From the NCBI GenBank assembly GCA_963845565.1, contig CAWJSJ010000002.1, forward strand, positions 2,144,001-2,208,000: 64,000 bases of DNA. The letters are read 5' to 3'. Source of the stretch: an uncultured Methylomirabilota bacterium (GTDB lineage: Bacteria; Methylomirabilota; Methylomirabilia; Methylomirabilales; 2-02-FULL-66-22). The translations under genes were made by a program, and so were the position numbers. The notes beneath the pieces were generated by a model. That model had not been told where the DNA came from and did no database searches. It saw only the letters and a program-made list of their open reading frames with translations. Below, piece after piece: positions 20,074 to 30,574 of this stretch (position 1 is its first letter; each line of letters starts with the position of its first letter).

Positions 20074-21570
20074 TCACACGTTGAGAGGAAAGTGTACCGT
20101 GAAGGTGGTGCCGAGGCCGACCTCGCTCTTGACGTCGATAGTGCCCTTGTGGTCCTCGACGATCCGGTGGGTGATGGCCATGCCCAAGCCCATCCCCTTC
20201 TCCTTGGTGGTGAAAAAGGGGTCGAAGATGCGGGGCAGGCGATCCGCCGGAATGCCCTGGCCGGTGTCCGTAACCATCACGCGAAGCGCTGGTTCCGGCT
20301 GGGGGTGGGGAGGGCCGGAATTGGAAAAGACCATGGCGGGGACCGTGCCCGTCCGGACGGTCAGGTCGCCGCCCGCGGGCATTGCCTGGATGGCATTCGA
20401 CACCAGATTGCTGAAGCACCGATGCAGCCGCTTCCGGTCGGCCATACAGAAGGGCAGTTCGGGATCGTACTCCTGCGCGAGCTTGACCTTCTGAGTGGCC
20501 ATCTGGTTTTCAAACAGCTCCAGAACCTGCGCGAAGACCTCATTGAGATTGACGGGGTCCCGGTGAATCGCGACGGGGCGGGCCAGTTCCATCATGTCCT
20601 CGATGACGGCCTGGACCCGCTCCAGCTCTCGTGGCACCACTCGGTTGAACTTTTCCCGCACGTCGGGGTCGTCGTGATGCAGCGACATGAGCTGCGAAAA
20701 GATCAGGATGGAGGTCAGGGGATTGCGGATGTCGTGAGCGATCCCGGCCGCCATGGTGCCCAGGGCGGCCAGGCGATCGGCGCGCCGCAGACGATCCTCC
20801 AGGTCGCGCACCCGAGAGAGCTGGGCGATCATCTCATTGAACGCCGCCGACAGTTGTCCCAGCTCATCTCGCGAGGTGATCTCGATCCGATGGTCGAACT
20901 CGCCGCGGCCGACGGCGGCCACGCCGCGCATCAGCGCCTGGATCGGCCGGGCCGTACGCCGCGCCAGAAAAATGGAGCCGACGCTTCCGATCAGCAGCCC
21001 GAGAAGCACGAACCCTGCGATCTGCCAGCGCGTCCGAGTGATTTCCTGATGCATGGCCTGGAGGGAGACTCCAAGGCGGATCACCCCCCACGTTTCTTGC
21101 GATCCCTCGATGGTCACGGGAAGTCGCACGTCATATACCGTCTCCCGCTCGGTACCGGGAAGATGGAGCTGGTCCACGGTCGCGTCGCCGGGCTTCACGT
21201 CGTTCCGTCGTTGTAGCAGTTGACCGAGCGGGTAGTCTGGGATGAACTGCGCGGCGACGTTGCCTTCCTTGTCGAGGACCACGGCGTATACGAGATCCGG
21301 TTTCTTCTTGAACTGATCCAGCGTTTGCTCGATGGACACATAGTTGTAAGTCAGAAGATCGCTGGCCACCGAACCCGCCAGCGCTTCGACCATGACGAGC
21401 GCGCGCTTCTCGACTTCCTGGACGATGGCGGTCCGCTGCCGCTGCTCGACCAGAAAAGCCGAACTGCCGATCAGCAACACGATGAGCAGGTTCACCAGCA
21501 GGGCGAGTTTGACCCGGAAGCTCAATCGTTCGGCCCACGCGAGCCAGTGGAACCTCTTGAACGGACTCAT
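20074..21570 (-). CDS. Membrane sensor histidine kinase (2 TM, periplasmic domain, HAMP, HisKA, HATPase)
   Basis: DELGQL..AFN.M (HAMP), AHDIRNPL (H box), NAIQA, DTGQGI, FFTTKEKGMGLG. Start overlaps the upstream SBP stop (ATGA). Confidence 0.93.
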   Translation of the reverse strand: MSPFKRFHWLAWAERLSFRVKLALLVNLLIVLLIGSSAFLVEQRQRTAIVQEVEKRALVMVEALAGSVASDLLTYNYVSIEQTLDQFKKKPDLVYAVVLDKEGNVAAQFIPDYPLGQLLQRRNDVKPGDATVDQLHLPGTERETVYDVRLPVTIEGSQETWGVIRLGVSLQAMHQEITRTRWQIAGFVLLGLLIGSVGSIFLARRTARPIQALMRGVAAVGRGEFDHRIEITSRDELGQLSAAFNEMIAQLSRVRDLEDRLRRADRLAALGTMAAGIAHDIRNPLTSILIFSQLMSLHHDDPDVREKFNRVVPRELERVQAVIEDMMELARPVAIHRDPVNLNEVFAQVLELFENQMATQKVKLAQEYDPELPFCMADRKRLHRCFSNLVSNAIQAMPAGGDLTVRTGTVPAMVFSNSGPPHPQPEPALRVMVTDTGQGIPADRLPRIFDPFFTTKEKGMGLGMAITHRIVEDHKGTIDVKSEVGLGTTFTVHFPLNV

Positions 21571-23195
21571 TCGCGTCCCGGAGATTTTGCCAGCCAGATC
21601 TTTCGCATGGGGATGTATGGATCGCCCAGGGCGTTCACCTCGATGCTTCGCACATACGGTTGGAAGATCCGCTCGTAACTGTAGTAGTTCAAGGGGATGA
21701 TCGGTGCATCGTCGAGGATCAATCGCTCCGCCTCGCGGTACAAGATCACGCGCTTCGGAAGATTCTGCTGAATGCGGGCTTCGTCGAGTAGTCGGTCCAC
21801 CCGCGGGTTTCGGTAGCGCGTCATGTTGTTCCGACCCTGCGAATGGAAGAGGCGGTAGAGAAAATTCTCCGGCTCAGGGACGTCGCCGACCCAGCCATAT
21901 CGAAAGATGGGCATCTTCCCGTCGTACATGTCGCGGTTGAAGGCCGGAAAATCCGTATTGTAGCGGAATTCGATCTGGACGCCGATTTCGGCCAGTTGCT
22001 GTCGAAGGGTTGCATGTTCCCGTTCGACGATTTCCGAACGCGGGTTGGACCAGACTTGAAAAACGGGCAGGCCTTTCCCGTCCGGGAATCCGGCCTTTAT
22101 TAACAGGGCACGCGCACGCGCGGGATCATAGGCGTACGGTTTGAACTGGGGGTCATGGCCGTATGTTCCTGGTGGAAGGAAGCTGTTACCGGGCTTGTAT
22201 CGTCCCTTGTAAACGTTCTGCACCAAAGCGTCTCGGTCGATCGCGAAATTGAATGCCTGGCGCAATTCCCGGCTGGTAAGCGGCTCCTTGGTGGTGTCGA
22301 AGCCAAAGAACCGGACGCCGAGAATGGGTCGGCTTACGAACTGGTGTTGTTTGCTCTCACGCGCCGTGCCCAATTCGCTTGTTGGAACTGGGGTGTCCTC
22401 GAGGTCTCGTTTGCTGAACCTCGAATACATCTCCTCGATCTTCTGTCCGGGGAAGATACGGTATTGCAGACGATCCAGGAAGGGCCGCCCCGCGAAGTAG
22501 TCAGGGTTTGCCTCCAGCTGGATCATGTCGTCTTTTTTCCATCCGGCGAACTTGAACGGGCCCGTTCCTACGGGACGATTCCCGAACTCGACGCCACTGG
22601 CTTGCACCGCTTCCCGCGGTACCACCTTCGCGTACCCGATGGCCAGGCTGGAGACAAACGGGGCGGAGGCTTCGGCGAGAGAGATCTCGATCGTGTGCGC
22701 GTCCAAGACCCGGAAACCGGAGACGCTCCGGGTTCGGCCCTCGATAAAATCCCGTGCGCCCCGTACCTTCGCAAACACTTCGATGCCGCTGGAACGTACC
22801 TTGGGGTCAAGGATGCGGAGGAACGAGAACACGACGTCATCGGCAACCAATTCCCGGCCGTTATGGAACTTGACCCCCTTCCGCAAGAAAAACGTCCAAA
22901 CCAGATTATCTCGCGAACTCTTCCAGGTTTCGGCCAAAGCCGGCGCGATGGAGAGGGTGTTGTCGTACTGCACCAAGCCGTCGAAGATCTGCTGGACCAC
23001 CGTGACGGCATTCGTATCCGTGACCCCTGCAGGGTCGAGCGTGGAGGGATTGTTGCTCAATGGACGACGATATGTCCCGCCATACTGAGGCGTCGGGCCC
23101 TTACCCTTGGTTTGCGCTAAGACATCAGGGGCGCCGAGCATTCCGGGGGCGAGGGACAGGAAACACAGAACGCAGAGAACGCGATGCAGCAGCAC
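21567..23195 (-). CDS. Family 5 (Opp/Dpp-type) solute-binding protein with no adjacent permeases or ATPase
   Basis: Signal peptide, YGGT, LDPA, IFDGLV, LRKGVKFHNG, PVGTGPF, LRQAFNFAIDR. Confidence 0.9.
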   Translation of the reverse strand: MLLHRVLCVLCFLSLAPGMLGAPDVLAQTKGKGPTPQYGGTYRRPLSNNPSTLDPAGVTDTNAVTVVQQIFDGLVQYDNTLSIAPALAETWKSSRDNLVWTFFLRKGVKFHNGRELVADDVVFSFLRILDPKVRSSGIEVFAKVRGARDFIEGRTRSVSGFRVLDAHTIEISLAEASAPFVSSLAIGYAKVVPREAVQASGVEFGNRPVGTGPFKFAGWKKDDMIQLEANPDYFAGRPFLDRLQYRIFPGQKIEEMYSRFSKRDLEDTPVPTSELGTARESKQHQFVSRPILGVRFFGFDTTKEPLTSRELRQAFNFAIDRDALVQNVYKGRYKPGNSFLPPGTYGHDPQFKPYAYDPARARALLIKAGFPDGKGLPVFQVWSNPRSEIVEREHATLRQQLAEIGVQIEFRYNTDFPAFNRDMYDGKMPIFRYGWVGDVPEPENFLYRLFHSQGRNNMTRYRNPRVDRLLDEARIQQNLPKRVILYREAERLILDDAPIIPLNYYSYERIFQPYVRSIEVNALGDPYIPMRKIWLAKSPGRE

Positions 23196-23263: not shown

Positions 23264-23292
23264 AGGCTAGCGCTCGCGCTGCCCGAAGTCAA
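23264..23292 (-). promoter_or_regulatory. Possible sigma70 promoter for the SBP-kinase operon
   Basis: Minus strand TTGACT-N17-TAGCCT downstream of the peptide terminator. Confidence 0.4.
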
Positions 23293-23320: not shown

Positions 23321-23355
23321 AAACAAAAGAGCGCGACCCTGAGGATCGCGCTCTT
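23321..23355 (-). terminator. Intrinsic terminator after the peptide array
   Basis: Minus strand AAGAGCGCGA-loop-TCGCGCTCTT followed by TTGTTT. Confidence 0.75.
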
Positions 23356-23389
23356 ACTCGGTAGTCTTAATGAGTGCTGTCTTTATTCC

Positions 23390-23524
23390 CTACTCGCCGC
23401 CGCCCCCGTCACCCTCGGCCATGCCAACGCGGCTGAACACCTGGGTCGAAGACTGGAGCTCCATCGCCGGAACGATCGCCAGAAGACCGAGCACCACCAG
23501 GGCGAGCACGATGAGCTTCTTCAT
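23390..23524 (-). CDS. 44-aa secreted peptide precursor, copy 3
   Basis: GGAGGA-N6-ATG. MKKLIVLALVVLGLLAIVPAMELQSSTQVFSRVGMAEGDGGGGE*. Sec-type leader. Confidence 0.8.
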   Translation of the reverse strand: MKKLIVLALVVLGLLAIVPAMELQSSTQVFSRVGMAEGDGGGGE

Positions 23525-23602
23525 GTCAGTTCCTCCGCTTTGGCAGCGTAAGTTATTTTATTGAATGATAACGGCTTCGTTTCCACTCGGACGAATGATT
23601 GC

Positions 23603-23737
23603 CTACTCGCCGCCGCCCCCGTCACCCTCGGCCATGCCAACGCGGCTGAACACCTGGGTCGAAGACTGGAGCTCCATCGCCGGAACGATCGCCAGAAGAC
23701 CGAGCACCACCAGGGCGAGCACGATGAGCTTCTTCAT
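23603..23737 (-). CDS. 44-aa secreted peptide precursor, copy 2
   Basis: Identical to copies 1 and 3, with its own GGAGGA RBS. Confidence 0.8.
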   Translation of the reverse strand: MKKLIVLALVVLGLLAIVPAMELQSSTQVFSRVGMAEGDGGGGE

Positions 23738-23815
23738 GTCAGTTCCTCCGCTTTGGCAGCGTAAGTTATTTTATTGAATGATAACGGCTTCGTTTCCACT
23801 CGGACGAATGATTGC

Positions 23816-23950
23816 CTACTCGCCGCCGCCCCCGTCACCCTCGGCCATGCCAACGCGGCTGAACACCTGGGTCGAAGACTGGAGCTCCATCGCCGGAACG
23901 ATCGCCAGAAGACCGAGCACCACCAGGGCGAGCACGATGAGCTTCTTCAT
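23816..23950 (-). CDS. 44-aa secreted peptide precursor, copy 1
   Basis: Identical sequence and RBS. First gene downstream of the sigma54 promoter. Confidence 0.8.
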   Translation of the reverse strand: MKKLIVLALVVLGLLAIVPAMELQSSTQVFSRVGMAEGDGGGGE

Positions 23951-24070
23951 GTCAGTTCCTCCGGTTGGTTGAGAATCGTTTTTGAGTCTTCGACGAATCT
24001 ACACGCGTGATTCGTTGTTGGTCGCTGGTGTGTTTTCGCTGTGTTTCTCGTCGTACGGTGTCTACAGGAA

Positions 24071-24086
24071 AGCAGGCTTCGTGCCA
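24071..24086 (-). promoter_or_regulatory. Sigma54 (-24/-12) promoter driving the peptide array
   Basis: Minus strand TGGCACGAAGCCTGCT, with GG-N10-GC spacing. Consensus is TGGCAC-N5-TTGCW. Confidence 0.75.
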
Positions 24087-24269
24087 GGTGTCGGGATTGC
24101 GCGATGTGGGCCGGGAAATGGCCGTGCATGGCGGCGATCTGTGGGTGAAGGTCGCCCCCCAAGAATCCCCGATGCCCAATTCTCTGGGCGAACGACGCAT
24201 CGAAATCGGAGATTATCGCCGCGGAAGGAAGGGAACTGCTTGAATCGGAAGGGGTTTATGTCGATGTCA

Positions 24270-24298
24270 GATTTTTTGTGCAAGCTGCTACAAAAATC
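24270..24298. promoter_or_regulatory. Candidate upstream activator sequence
   Basis: Dyad GATTTTTTGT-N10-ACAAAAATC (TGT-N10-ACA core) about 190 bp upstream of the -24 box. Confidence 0.45.
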
Positions 24299-24325
24299 GT
24301 GCAAGCCAGCATACACGAAGAGTGG

Positions 24326-25735
24326 CTAACTATTCGGAAATAGCTGGGGGCGAGAGTCAATCCGCAAGCGCTGCAGCTTCCACGCGAGCGTATTGCGATG
24401 CAAGCCGAGTACCCGAGCAGCTTCTGTCTGGTTCCACTGCACTTTTTCCAGGATGTTCAGGATATATTGGCGCTCGAAATGGCCCCGTGCCTCCCGCAAA
24501 GACAGTCCTGCCTTCTGGATGTCCTCGATGACATCCCCGCCAAGAATAGAGATTTCCAGGGGCAGCTCCCGCAGTGAGATCGTCTCGCTCTGGGCGAGGG
24601 CCACGGCCCGCTCGATCACGTTTTCCAGTTCGCGCACGTTGCCCGGCCAGTCGTAATGATAGAGAGCGGCCGTCGCCCCGGCGGAGAAACCCTTCACCTT
24701 CCGGACGAACTCCCGATTGTACTTGCCGATGAAGTGCTCCACCAGCAGCGGAATGTCCTCGCGCCGCTGACGCAGCGGCGGGAGAACGATCGGGACCACG
24801 TTCAGCCGGTAATACAGGTCCCCTCGGAACGTACCATCCTCGATCGCCTTCTTCAGGTCCCGGTTGGTCGCGGCGATGACCCGGACATCGATCTTGATGG
24901 TCCGGGTGCCGCCGACCCGCTCCACCTCGCGCTCCTGGAGGGCTCGGAGGATCTTCGCCTGAAGGTCCAGGCGCATGTGGCCGATCTCGTCCAGGAAAAG
25001 ACTCCCCCCGGTCGCGAGCTCGAACTTTCCCACCTTGGTGGCGATGGCCCCGGTGAATGCCCCCTTCTCGTGACCGAAGAGCTCCGACTCCAGGAGTTCC
25101 GCCGGGATGGCGGCGCAGTTGACGGCGACGAAGGGGCGCTGGTTCCGGTTGCTCTGCTGGTGGATGGCGCGGGCCAGCACCTCTTTCCCGGTTCCGCTCT
25201 CGCCGCTCAGCAGCACCGTCGCATTGTTATCGGCGATCCGGGCGACCAGGGTGTAGATCTCTTGCATCCGTTGGTTGCGCCCCACGAGATTCTCGAAGCG
25301 GTGGTCGCGCGCGATCTCGGAGCGCAGGTAGAGGACCTCCTTGACGAGTTCCTGCTTCTCGACCACGCGCTTGATCAGCGAGAGGATGTCGTGGGTGTCG
25401 AAGGGCTTGGTGATGTAGTCGGATGCGCCGAGCTTGATGGCCTCGATGGCGGTCTTCAGGGATTTGACTGCGGTGACGATCACCACCTCGGTCTGTTCGT
25501 TCAGGTCTTTGATCCGGCGCAGGACCTCGATTCCGTCCATGCCCGGCATCCGAATGTCGAGCAGCACGAGATTGACGTCGCGGGTGCTCAGGATGCGGAG
25601 CGCCTCGGGGCCCTGGGCGGCGAAGAGCAGGTCGTAATCCTTGGCGAGGACCGCCTCGAAGGATTCGCGGATGGCGGCGTCATCGTCCACCACCAGGATG
25701 CAGGCCCGGATCGGATGCCCGTCGTGATTCGTCAT
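24326..25735 (-). CDS. Sigma54-dependent response regulator (REC-AAA+-Fis HTH, NtrC/AtoC-like)
   Basis: ILVVDD, LLDIRMP, GESGTGKE, GAFTGA, WPGNVRELEN, NQTEAARVLG. Start taken at MTNHDG. Confidence 0.94.
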   Translation of the reverse strand: MTNHDGHPIRACILVVDDDAAIRESFEAVLAKDYDLLFAAQGPEALRILSTRDVNLVLLDIRMPGMDGIEVLRRIKDLNEQTEVVIVTAVKSLKTAIEAIKLGASDYITKPFDTHDILSLIKRVVEKQELVKEVLYLRSEIARDHRFENLVGRNQRMQEIYTLVARIADNNATVLLSGESGTGKEVLARAIHQQSNRNQRPFVAVNCAAIPAELLESELFGHEKGAFTGAIATKVGKFELATGGSLFLDEIGHMRLDLQAKILRALQEREVERVGGTRTIKIDVRVIAATNRDLKKAIEDGTFRGDLYYRLNVVPIVLPPLRQRREDIPLLVEHFIGKYNREFVRKVKGFSAGATAALYHYDWPGNVRELENVIERAVALAQSETISLRELPLEISILGGDVIEDIQKAGLSLREARGHFERQYILNILEKVQWNQTEAARVLGLHRNTLAWKLQRLRIDSRPQLFPNS

Positions 25736-27750: not shown

Positions 27751-27849
27751 GCCGTTGTCAAAGAATAAGTTGAGCGGAGACATTCCGAAACGGCATAAGG
27801 AGCCGTAACGAAATAGAAAGAGATGTATAGGTTATTTCGTAACGGCTCC
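27751..27849 (-). mobile_element. 99-bp MITE-like element, family A, copy 2
   Basis: Reverse complement of 14852-14950 with about one mismatch. TAA on both sides. Confidence 0.75.
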
Positions 27850-30251
27850 TAAGCGATGGTCGCCGCCCTGACCTGCTGGAGGGTGGTGCGACCCTGCAGA
27901 ACCTTGATCGCCCCGTCCTGCAGGAGGGTGGTCATTCCCTCGTCCACGGCCACCTTCCGAAGCTGCTCGGCGGTGGCGCGTTTCAGGATCGCGCGCTTGA
28001 TCCGGTCGGTCCCGAGCAGGAGCTCGTGCAGGCCGAGCCGGCCGTGGAGCCCGCTGCCCCGGCAGAGGTCGCAGCCCGTGCCGCGATACAGGACGAGGCC
28101 GTCCGTATAGGTGTACCCGAGCGTCTCCAAGACCGCCAAGCCGCACACCCGGGCCAGCTCGTCGAACTCCTCTTTGGGCGGATGGTACGCCTCGCGGCAT
28201 TTCGCGCAGACCGCCCGGCACAGCCGCTGGGCCAGCACCCCCACCAGGGCGTCGGCGACGCCGAAGCAGTCCAATCCCAGGTCCAGCAGGCGTGAGACGG
28301 TCTCCACGGCGCCGCCCGCGCGCAGGGTGCCGAGGACCAGATGGCCTGCCAGCGCTGCCTCGAGGAGCGCATCCCAGGTGTCCTGGGTCCGCACGGCATC
28401 CACCGCGATCACGTCCGGGTCGGCGCGGAGCGCCGCGCGGACGGCCGCGGCGACGGTCACGCCGCGTGCGGGTTGGACCTGGACTCGGCGCAGACCGGTG
28501 TGGGCCGTCTCGATCGGGTCTTGGATACTCCAGACCTTGCGCTCGACCGCATCGACGGCACCGAGGATGGCGCCGAGCGCAGCGGTGGCGCCGGCGCCCG
28601 GCGGGCTCCCGCAGAGGAACAAGCCAGCGGGTCTGGACGCGATCGCGTGAAGGGTGTGGAGGTTTCGCTCGGCGAGACCGAGTTGGTCCAGCGACAGGGG
28701 CACGCTCGCCGGCAGGAGGTGCATCACCAGGTCCTCGTTCGACCCGGCCGTCGGGAGCGTGGCGACGCGCAGGGCGACCTCTCGGTTGTCGACGACATAC
28801 GTTCCCCGACCCTCCTGGGGCGCGCGCCGCTCGGCGGGATCGAGTCCGGCCACGGCCTTGCAGTGAGCCACCAGGGCCAGCCCCTCTGCCGCCGGCAGCG
28901 TGGTATGCTCGACACACAGACCGTCCACCCGGAAACGAATGACGCACGCCCGCTGGCCGCCCTGCGGCTCGAGGTGCACGTGCGACGCCCCGACCCGGCA
29001 GGCGTCACGCATGATCTGATCGGCGACTCGGGTGCCGGCCGCCTCGCTCGCCTCCCCAGGCTTACTTCCCTGGTCCTCTCCGGTCTGCCCCATGGGCATT
29101 TCCGGCTCCCGCTGGTGGGCCACCTCGTCCGCCGTGTCTTCCGCGGCCGCTTCGCAGACCAGCGGCGCGGTTGCGACGGAGACCGGTGCCTCTGCATCGA
29201 CGGACCGGCTCGGCGTGTCCGCAACGGACGCATCGTCAGGCGTGCGACCGGCAGGGCCGGTCACCGCGTCGAGGAATCGCAGGATATCCGCGCGCAGACC
29301 GACGGCGAACCGGATGGGCCGGCCAGGGAAGGTCCGCTTGATATCCTGGATACGGTTCAGGTGATTTGGGTCGTCGCTCAGGATATGGACGCCGTCCTTG
29401 TCGTGCTTCAGGGGAATCCAGCCGTTGTTCCGCAGGGTTTCGGGATTCACGCTGTCGAGCAGAGTCGGATCGAGGCTCGTCGCGCCGTCGTATTCGATGA
29501 AGGGGCACCGGTAGAACTGGCTGAGGGACTTCCCGATGTCCGCCCTGGGGACCTGGTACTGCTCCAGCAGGACCGTTTCGACGTCAACCTGACCCTGCTG
29601 CGCCTCCCGGATCGCCTGCTCCAAATCGGCTTGGGTGATCCGGTTGTGGGCTACCAGATAGTCGAACTTGGTGGGGATCCGCCGGGAGACCTTGAGTCGG
29701 TTGAAAAACGCGATCCCCAATGTCTGGGCGAGTTCGGAGACCGCGTCCTCGTCCTTCTGGGTGAATCGTCCGCCACTCTTCTTGTTCACGAGCTGTATCA
29801 CGCCCATCAGATACTTGCCATCGGCCACGATCGGGTAGGTCAGGATCTGCTTGGTGCGGAATCCGCTCTTCCGGTCCCAGGAGCTGTCGAACGTGAGCGC
29901 CGGGCTGACGGCGCGAAGCTCGGCGCGGCTGTACGCGTCCGCGATGTTCACGGGGCGGCGGAACTTGGCAGCGAAGCCGGCGATGCTCTGCTCGCTGATG
30001 GGGACGCGGATCTCGCGGATCTTGTTGATATCGAGAAACTTGGAGTAGATCTCGCGCCGTTCGGCGTCCACGACGTACAGGGTCAGCAGCTCCGCGTCGA
30101 GCACCTGGAGGATCTCATCCTTGAGGTCCACCACGATGTGGTCCAAATCCTTGGCAGAATGGATCCGATTGATGATCTCTTTGACGTGTTCCGCGCGGGC
30201 GACTTTCTGCTCGAGTTCTTCCACCCTACTGGAACGGCCTTCGGTCTCCAT
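27849..30251 (-). CDS. GAF domain plus GspE/PilB-like ATPase with degenerate catalytic motifs
   Basis: N-terminal GAF (FD..WDRKSGFRTKQIL..P, GVIQLVNK). RFRVDG, ERRAPQEGR, LRADPDVI, AQRL, CxxC...CxxC. Walker A reads GSPPGAGAT. Confidence 0.82.
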   Translation of the reverse strand: METEGRSSRVEELEQKVARAEHVKEIINRIHSAKDLDHIVVDLKDEILQVLDAELLTLYVVDAERREIYSKFLDINKIREIRVPISEQSIAGFAAKFRRPVNIADAYSRAELRAVSPALTFDSSWDRKSGFRTKQILTYPIVADGKYLMGVIQLVNKKSGGRFTQKDEDAVSELAQTLGIAFFNRLKVSRRIPTKFDYLVAHNRITQADLEQAIREAQQGQVDVETVLLEQYQVPRADIGKSLSQFYRCPFIEYDGATSLDPTLLDSVNPETLRNNGWIPLKHDKDGVHILSDDPNHLNRIQDIKRTFPGRPIRFAVGLRADILRFLDAVTGPAGRTPDDASVADTPSRSVDAEAPVSVATAPLVCEAAAEDTADEVAHQREPEMPMGQTGEDQGSKPGEASEAAGTRVADQIMRDACRVGASHVHLEPQGGQRACVIRFRVDGLCVEHTTLPAAEGLALVAHCKAVAGLDPAERRAPQEGRGTYVVDNREVALRVATLPTAGSNEDLVMHLLPASVPLSLDQLGLAERNLHTLHAIASRPAGLFLCGSPPGAGATAALGAILGAVDAVERKVWSIQDPIETAHTGLRRVQVQPARGVTVAAAVRAALRADPDVIAVDAVRTQDTWDALLEAALAGHLVLGTLRAGGAVETVSRLLDLGLDCFGVADALVGVLAQRLCRAVCAKCREAYHPPKEEFDELARVCGLAVLETLGYTYTDGLVLYRGTGCDLCRGSGLHGRLGLHELLLGTDRIKRAILKRATAEQLRKVAVDEGMTTLLQDGAIKVLQGRTTLQQVRAATIA

Positions 30252-30574
30252 GTGTCTCACTCCCCCTGCCTTCCGGCGCAGGTCCATCCGCGTCGCGTGC
30301 CCCTGGTGCCTTTGGGGTGACCCGAGGACGGTGCGCGGTGAGCCGCCGCCCTTCCCGGGTCTGGGACGAGTTGCCGGCAGAAGACTAGCGATCGTTTTTG
30401 GCGAAGGCAAGTTGAAAGATGACCTGCGACATTCGCTTGCCCAGCGGGTCGCCTGGCAGTATGCTCTCGCGCGATCACATGCGAGGGTGCGACCCAGGGG
30501 CACCCCCGCCGGGCACGACCATTATTGCCCCGGCTCCTCCACCTGGGGGAGGTGCCCCCGTTCAGGAGGCCCCC

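Follow-up and report, generated by a model that had tools for sequence, protein, structure and literature searches.

A tandem array of secreted-peptide genes in Methylomirabilota lies in a conserved regulatory cassette that may form a peptide quorum-sensing circuit

The window considered here is the whole stretch of DNA that was analysed, 64,000 nucleotides of contig CAWJSJ010000002.1 (assembly GCA_963845565.1, positions 2,144,001 to 2,208,000) from an uncultured Methylomirabilota bacterium. Part of it carries, all on the same strand and in this order, the gene of an activator, a sigma-54 promoter, three peptide genes, a hairpin, and the genes of a solute-binding protein (SBP) and of a sensor kinase:

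24326..25735, minus strand: sigma-54-dependent response regulator, 469 aa (PF00072, PF00158, PF02954)
24286..24303, no strand assigned: predicted enhancer site 1, TGCAC-N8-GTGCA type, ~217 nt upstream of the sigma-54 site
24265..24282, no strand assigned: predicted enhancer site 2, ~196 nt upstream of the sigma-54 site
24173..24190, no strand assigned: predicted enhancer site 3, ~104 nt upstream of the sigma-54 site
24071..24086, minus strand: sigma-54 (-24/-12) promoter TGGCAC-N5-CTGCT, from a motif match and a position conserved in relatives
23816..23950, minus strand: peptide precursor gene copy 1, 44 aa; ribosome-binding site at 23957-23962
23603..23737, minus strand: peptide precursor gene copy 2, 44 aa
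23390..23524, minus strand: peptide precursor gene copy 3, 44 aa; its last eight codons (23393-23416) encode the predicted mature EGDGGGGE
23327..23355, minus strand: intrinsic terminator-like hairpin after the array (13 pairs, 8 of them G-C, T tail; consensus match)
23264..23292, minus strand: possible, weak sigma-70 promoter TTGACT-N17-TAGCCT for the SBP and kinase genes
21567..23195, minus strand: family-5 (Opp/Dpp-like) SBP, 542 aa, Sec-type leader, PF00496, no adjoining permease
20074..21570, minus strand: sensor histidine kinase, two membrane segments flanking sCache_3_2, then HAMP, HisKA and HATPase

The three minus-strand ORFs encode one identical 44-aa peptide (MKKLIVLALVVLGLLAIVPAMELQSSTQVFSRVGMAEGDGGGGE), each is preceded by GGAGGA-N6-ATG, both 78-nt spacers are identical, and an exact 213-bp periodicity runs over 23389-23963 (2.7 units, TRF score 1151), which confirms the three identical 44-codon genes in tandem that had been proposed from the sequence-only reading. 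No copy beyond these three was found in the 5.36-Mb genome (6 contigs). Among 12 genus-level homologues compared over codons 2-36, pN is lower than pS in 66 of 66 pairs (mean 0.105 vs 0.413), which marks the peptide gene as protein-coding and under selection; third positions account for 147 of the 222 differences between genus-level homologues and the window copy. The view that these are real, ribosome-binding-site-led genes of secreted peptides is thus borne out, while the plus-strand ORFs overlying the array, already taken for antisense shadows, have no support of their own.

The triplication is not restricted to the window. A sister genome (G009, UvrC 95% identical) likewise has three copies, which differ among themselves at synonymous sites and in the second spacer, and this speaks against the recent amplification that had been suggested; short indels in G-runs of the G009 array look like long-read errors, as far as can be inferred. 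Contigs from three RNA-library runs of three studies each traverse an array spacer: X16 (covering 23654-23882) and X18 (23721-23963) show one difference each from the window, and X15 (23391-23633) has a diverged spacer. Such contigs give neither strand nor level, DNA carry-over is possible, and their depths cannot rank genes. Because G009 has three copies and contigs of three studies bridge a spacer, the triplication is no assembly artefact. The array is common to the sister genome and was homogenised in the window genome by gene conversion or polishing, and the perfect identity of the window copies could partly stem from consensus polishing. Two to five peptide genes occur in 12 of 106 Methylomirabilota loci. 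Read depth was set aside as a measure of copy number (X2, a 97-nt DNA contig within the array, has a depth of 15.6 vs 3.1-6.6 in its flanks).

The array had been recognised as a set of peptide genes, correctly, but the circuit that surrounds it (sigma-54 promoter, enhancer sites, activator, SBP and kinase) had been overlooked. The activator combines a receiver, an AAA+ domain with GAFTGA and a Fis-type HTH, and is NtrC/AtoC-like while scoring below equivalog cut-offs; the start of the kinase gene overlaps the stop of the SBP gene by 4 nt. Matches to the SBP at E 1e-120 are present in 120 of 251 genomes of Methylomirabilota, about ten of which have only a more distant SBP paralogue without the cassette. 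In the 106 loci of the closer SBP group that were examined, a subset of all matches, a peptide gene was recovered in 102 (101 by pattern, one by eye); three of the other four end early or lack the peptide near a contig end, and the fourth is a second SBP copy without a kinase. Among loci with enough DNA to judge, a same-strand activator gene ends no more than 2 kb upstream in 92 of 96, and the SBP gene is succeeded by that of the kinase in 95 of 97. No SBP match at 1e-100 was found in the plasmid collection. Several named SBP matches suggesting a wider spread beyond the phylum were left uncounted, as they lie on short contigs of Rokubacteria-type look. Two further ideas were dropped: an "in-frame TGA" taken for selenocysteine in SBP homologues proved, in the one case displayed, to be a normal stop at query position 538, where matches end, and no peptide-SBP fusion was seen among the long open frames that precede some SBPs.

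The cassette varies in its details. One locus (L149) has two tandem SBP genes between peptide and kinase, L092 and L063 have partial SBP duplicates, and L107 (G012) has a second SBP copy without peptide or kinase. Kinases of the window genus have no cytoplasmic PAS domain and Rokubacteria-type kinases carry one between HAMP and HisKA (window 20074-21570 compared with L080, L097 and L149). In a clustering of neighbours that covered 40 of 80 loci, one gene family adjoins the cassette in 18 of the 40 (e.g. L146:81-1685); by eye we presume it to be ComM/YifB-like. Elsewhere in the window, an 884-aa ORF (27849-30503, minus strand) is, to judge by eye, presumably a GAF-like region joined to a PilB/GspE-type ATPase. 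The window genome also contains, at L328:4609-10976 (contig C1, ~1,025,600-1,032,000), a further pair of genes for family-5 SBP-like proteins, after which comes a kinase gene with a sensor that fits the cassette sensor profile (E 5e-24); no peptide gene or sigma-54 site was seen in the upstream region, and this is possibly a distant SBP-kinase relay for another ligand.

A lone sigma-54 match in the window is not above chance (one found vs 3.6 expected), and it is the comparison across loci that singles out the peptide promoter: 90 of 101 loci have a sigma-54-type site 75-192 nt ahead of the first peptide gene, and shuffles give 5.3 (maximum 12). The palindrome TGCAC-N8-GTGCA occurs upstream of this site in 46 of 90 loci, vs 10 in shuffles, at distances that peak near 100-110 and 180-220 nt. 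The window genome encodes RpoN, and in a genome-wide regulon scan, whose training left out the window and G009, the peptide promoter heads the 2244 candidate sites with a score of 30.1, the runner-up reaching 15.1, and no other activator target stands out. The simplest reading is that the sigma-54 regulator drives the peptide genes, presumably by binding the predicted enhancer sites. The sigma-70 pattern before the SBP was met in only 2 of 13 loci tried.

Three precursor designs go with this type of SBP and sensor. In Methylomirabilota, the precursor consists of a hydrophobic leader, P-x-x-E, a polar linker, F-x-x-x-G-x-A and a tail of 4-9 residues, the invariance of P..E and G.A being partly built in, because the search pattern for tails required both. 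These tails are 59% Gly, with 70 distinct ones among 118, and start with Asp (59), Glu (32) or Cys (21). In a Rokubacteria-type group (L087, L095, L097, L098, L102, L103, L112 and L115), 2-5 non-identical peptide genes occur per locus, and the tails start with Cys and end with Trp (CDGGGGGW and kin). No Pfam or NCBIfam family was found for the window peptide, with weak scattered matches among 91 members, and its atlas look-alikes are unnamed hypothetical clusters only. A profile search of 1.84 billion proteins returned 80 matches, 34 of which were inspected and are nearly all Methylomirabilota-type precursors or misread frames.

The second design, which that profile search did not reach, comes from Desulfobacterota, where the SBP-sensor cassette is also found (among 301 genomes of the phylum 8 have an SBP profile match, as have 20 of 81 G251 relatives and 9 of 81 G518 relatives). 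Two loci, from records labelled Thermodesulfobacteriota and delta proteobacterium, have the same order of regulator, promoter, SBP and kinase, with a 29-aa precursor made of a signal peptide ending in P-V-L-A followed by EGSGY or DEGGW. More broadly, 27 of 29 Desulfobacterota kinase-type loci carry a precursor of 29-33 aa, in which a signal peptide with an A-x-A-type site, mostly P-V-L-A, is followed by 5-7 Gly-rich residues (such as EGGGY, DGNGW, CGGAGP or WGGGGGD); the first of these residues is variable, 12 different ones occurring in the 27 tails. In the Desulfobacterota loci L282-L284 and L280, a single-domain receiver (~120 aa) comes after the kinase, a possible second output.

In the third design, the same SBP and sensor families stand beside a secreted subtilase with intact-looking catalytic motifs and tandem pentapeptides (ADGGS x8 in G518, ADGGA x5 and x7 in G321), the SBP matches scoring 622-643 bits and the sensor, where present, 192-215 bits. 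Such arrays are carried by 73 of 76 homologues of this subtilase, with units DGGAA, DGGSA, DGGAG, EGGAG, DGGSG and others, located after the pro-region and after the G-N-H-S-N-W motif; the phase of the repeats and all cutting are our inference. Among eight further subtilase regions, four have the SBP beside the subtilase (G698, G757, G900 and one locus of G687), G682 has the sensor, and the rest have neither in the stretch examined. In subtilase-type loci the output side consists either of HD-GYP domains accompanied by an RHH or RHH-PilZ gene, or of hybrid kinases together with sigma-54 regulators. Gly-rich pentapeptides form one or two arrays in members of the subtilase family (L275:6387-8054, L277:9158-10903, L318-L324 and P0083-P0158), a single chain carrying as many as 39 motif copies; in G757, four of these subtilases lie within ~25 kb, together with a second sensor.

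What would be the mature signal? In the window, it is most likely the C-terminal tail EGDGGGGE (676.2 Da), because a small residue with D/E-G-G-x-x or a similar Gly-rich tail after it is all that the three precursor designs have in common, and because all three go with one SBP and one sensor family. Two cleavage sites had been proposed, of which GMA|EGDGGGGE is favoured, because Desulfobacterota signal peptides run straight into such a tail, and VPA|MELQ would be at most a first cut, because P-V-I-E stands there in most of the phylum. The G-x-A site lies 17-20 residues past the conserved Pro, a distance greater than the usual length of a signal c-region. With one signal peptidase I in the window genome, no S8 subtilase match in it, and a G-x-A site so far from the membrane segment, an additional maturing protease probably acts on the window precursor.

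As for the receptor, the structure model of the SBP (pLDDT 91) has Dpp/Opp peptide-binding SBPs as nearest folds, among them structures with a bound tetrapeptide, nonapeptide or Phr pentapeptide (the last being PDB 8are, OppA with the PhrE pentapeptide). Residue D438, kept in at least 90% of 117 rows, aligns with D436 of E. coli DppA, and DppA R383 aligns with N384 of the SBP. We take DppA D436 to hold the amino end of the peptide and R383 the carboxyl end of a dipeptide. Mutants of both DppA residues are named in the title of PDB 8z1z. The pattern of D438 and N384 fits a cut peptide longer than two residues. No match to OppB/OppC was found in 159 cassette loci, and matches are present in 2 of 4 control loci of SBP paralogues, these two being 43% identical; the window genome has 19 other family-5 SBP matches, and the peptide may be imported elsewhere. 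A model of the SBP with the kinase sensor scored 0.38 vs 0.00 for the best of three controls, with at least 95% of contacts agreeing between runs and a partner pLDDT of at least 74; of 157 solved pairs 116 attained the mark applied, as did 2 of 215 mismatched ones, and a contact is only weakly suggested, because scores of at most 0.60 came from only 18 solved pairs and from both mismatches.

Comparison of close relatives indicates that parts of the cassette travel together. Within the genus, genomes G012 and G013 are 98% identical in the C-terminal part of the activator and 97% in the kinase domain, vs 61% in the N-half of the SBP and 51% in the sensor. A group of seven genomes forms one clade in the SBP tree (100/100) and in the sensor tree (91/90), but is rejected as such in the kinase-domain tree (p-AU 2e-58) and in the activator tree (1e-103), these trees leaving out G005, G009 (frameshifted SBP) and G021 (no SBP sequence available). 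The tails have 4 residues in 6 of 6 group members with a peptide, and 6-8 residues in 6 of 6 others. As the group was named from SBP identities, the SBP clade is circular, and independent evidence comes solely from the sensor tree, the two rejections and the tails. As a block, tail class, SBP and sensor domain travel together, against the kinase and activator trees, and represent exchangeable specificity groups.

Taken together, these data are probably best explained by a quorum-type peptide autoinduction loop relayed through the SBP, and the signal role ascribed to the peptide from its sequence holds up as the best reading. The phosphorylated sigma-54 activator would bind the three enhancer sites, which are conserved among relatives, and fire the peptide-gene promoter. 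By analogy with the homologues, the 44-aa precursor would pass through the Sec system and be cleaved behind G-x-A, in the window peptide probably by two successive cuts, freeing the acidic, Gly-rich EGDGGGGE, which would leave the periplasm and re-enter it. The family-5 SBP, turned into a receptor as its fold, kept Asp and absent permease suggest, would bind the tail by its free amino end and dock on the sCache domain of the kinase, to which it is coupled at the gene level. The kinase would then phosphorylate the activator and close a feedback loop, probably a positive one. Extra gene copies may raise the dose of peptide, as the pentapeptide repeats may do in the subtilase form, and each combination of tail class, SBP and sensor domain, set apart by the conflict between trees, would define a specificity group. 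Two features of the tails weigh against a peptide-quorum reading, namely their low complexity (59% Gly) together with a variable first residue, and the mass of the octapeptide, which is near the usual porin limit of ~600 Da. In addition, family-5 SBPs often bind peptides with little sequence choice. The regulon scan, which yielded the peptide promoter as sole clear target, and the search for a maturing protease, which gave one signal peptidase I and no S8 subtilase in the window genome, also count against the reading.

A private form of sensing, in which the cut peptide is kept in the periplasm of its producer and reports outer-membrane leakiness, confinement, or Sec/signal-peptidase throughput, appears unlikely, yet deserves attention. 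It accounts equally well for the gene order and for the evidence on binding, the peptide promoter is the only clear target of the activator, and the octapeptide has a mass close to the porin limit. On the other hand, the block-wise exchange of tail, SBP and sensor among close relatives, as well as the diversity of the tails, are expected if the signals of neighbours matter, the subtilase chains with their many motif copies suggest bulk release, and the HD-GYP and RHH-PilZ partners point to c-di-GMP. Community behaviour is often an output of c-di-GMP signalling. It is only because of block exchange and high repeat numbers that private sensing can be set apart from the quorum-type loop.

Does the active species have to be the short tail? 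A longer pro-peptide (the 24-mer starting at VPA|M) could be active instead, or the peptide could bind the kinase sCache domain directly, with the SBP buffering or antagonising it, as might be thought from the linker motifs P-x-x-E and F-x-x-x-G-x-A kept across the phylum, from the V-P-A site that follows the hydrophobic core in the window genus, and from the fact that the sensor domain too follows the specificity group. This is rendered improbable by the Desulfobacterota precursors, which have no linker, and by the subtilase repeats of five residues, both of which go with the same SBP and sensor families, and by the persistent pairing of SBP and sensor whatever the output domain.

With 44 aa, a basic start, a single hydrophobic segment and a short periplasmic tail, and with its apparent induction by the cognate regulator, the peptide also resembles MgrB and SafA, the anchored modulators of PhoQ, and could in principle be an uncut, membrane-anchored feedback modulator of the kinase. 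We consider this very improbable: none of 91 members has an MgrB-like Pfam/NCBIfam match at E 0.1, the Desulfobacterota forms stop 5-7 residues after a canonical signal-peptidase site, the subtilase-borne repeats have no anchor, and the SBP would be left without explanation. That the peptide is a RiPP precursor or antimicrobial whose enzymes are encoded elsewhere, the cassette merely regulating it, is close to negligible in our view, since its leader-plus-variable-core layout, the 21 of 118 tails that start with Cys and the tandem precursor copies common in RiPP loci are outweighed by a Sec-like leader, by cores so rich in Gly, and by the neighbourhood of the cassette, which shows no recurrent gene for a modifying enzyme, a dedicated exporter or immunity, in line with the earlier statement that no RiPP enzymes adjoin the array.

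The quorum-type loop can be placed among known systems. Sensor kinases stimulated by SBPs include LuxP-LuxQ (AI-2), CBP-ChiS (a family-5 SBP) and AioX-AioS (a sCache-like sensor), and the sensor-kinase ligands in Table 1 of a 2021 paper are AI-2, sugars, TMAO, arsenite and citrate, with no ribosomal self peptide in this table (PMC8050422). In these three systems the SBP gene is linked to a sensor gene, not to a transporter, as in the cassette; according to the same table, AioS is a sCache-type sensor like the cassette kinase, CBP belongs to SBP_bac_5 like the cassette SBP, and the SBPs of NspS-MbaA and ScrB-ScrC serve c-di-GMP enzymes, as in some cassette-related loci. What distinguishes the cassette from LuxPQ, CBP-ChiS and AioXS is that the putative ligand gene lies inside it, under the activator's own promoter. 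Like the cassette regulator, AioR is a sigma-54 activator.

The precursors recall those of Rap-Phr/RRNPP systems of Bacillota, with a Sec-type precursor, a short C-terminal peptide after a small residue (its cutting being predicted here), a family-5 SBP that binds Phr (as the cassette SBP may bind its tail), and maturation of subtilisin type in some forms. Whereas Opp brings Phr into the cytoplasm and to its TPR receptor there, the cassette has no permease, and its signal is apparently read outside the inner membrane, in diderm phyla; no gene of a cytoplasmic TPR receptor was found beside the peptide gene, which is flanked by the sigma-54 regulator and the SBP. In agr (AgrBDCA) and ComCDE, peptide gene, kinase and regulator form one auto-regulated cassette, a likeness that extends for agr to specificity groups with co-varying peptide and sensing parts, set as a variable block amid cytoplasmic parts that are conserved. 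Unlike both, the signal here would be a linear, Sec-exported tail and no thiolactone or double-glycine peptide. The agr parts also differ, with a polytopic HPK10 kinase in place of a sCache_3_2-HAMP-HisKA kinase and its SBP, and a LytTR regulator in place of a sigma-54 AAA+ activator; between activator and SBP there is no room for an AgrB peptidase, and none is among the recurring neighbours of 40 loci. The leaders have G-x-A or P-x-x-A at their end, vs Gly-Gly in ComCDE, and no peptidase-ABC exporter is among the recurring neighbours of the 40 loci clustered. MgrB and SafA differ in sequence (no match among the 91 members) and in the C-terminal end of the homologues, a signal-peptidase site followed by 5-7 residues, and RiPP loci in encoding modifying enzymes with the precursor. 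Polyprotein precursors of the yeast alpha-factor type contain many copies of a short signal per chain, as does the subtilase form; here, in contrast, the repeats belong to the protease itself, where they follow the pro-region and also sit in a loop of its catalytic domain, which would allow self-release.

The cassette may be likened to an agr-type arrangement in which a LuxPQ-type relay reads a precursor of the Phr type. All its parts belong to known families, but the wiring of self peptide, receptor-only SBP, sCache kinase and sigma-54 matches no system found, nor does the protease-borne repeat form. No description of the cassette was found in a literature search made mostly without subscription journals and supplements, which could list the family.

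Peptide pheromones are regarded as a Gram-positive language, and to our knowledge well-defined cases in diderms are few. We lean, if only slightly, towards the broader view that at least Methylomirabilota and Desulfobacterota share a previously undescribed peptide quorum sensing of diderms, in which a Gly-rich pheromone of 4-9 residues, derived from a small Sec precursor (1-5 genes) or from tandem pentapeptides borne by a subtilase, would be bound by a periplasmic, receptor-only family-5 SBP, and relayed by one family of sCache sensors to sigma-54 kinases, hybrid kinases or HD-GYP phosphodiesterases, with exchangeable groups of kin specificity. Direct tests in cultured organisms may be feasible, because members of the subtilase family are source-named Desulfococcus multivorans and Desulfonema magnum. 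The cassette represents a complete, testable candidate circuit whose ligand sequence can be read from the genome, and it occurs in an abundant uncultivated phylum of soil and groundwater as well as in sulfate reducers. If its peptides gate growth or aggregation, synthetic versions might aid the culturing of Rokubacteria.
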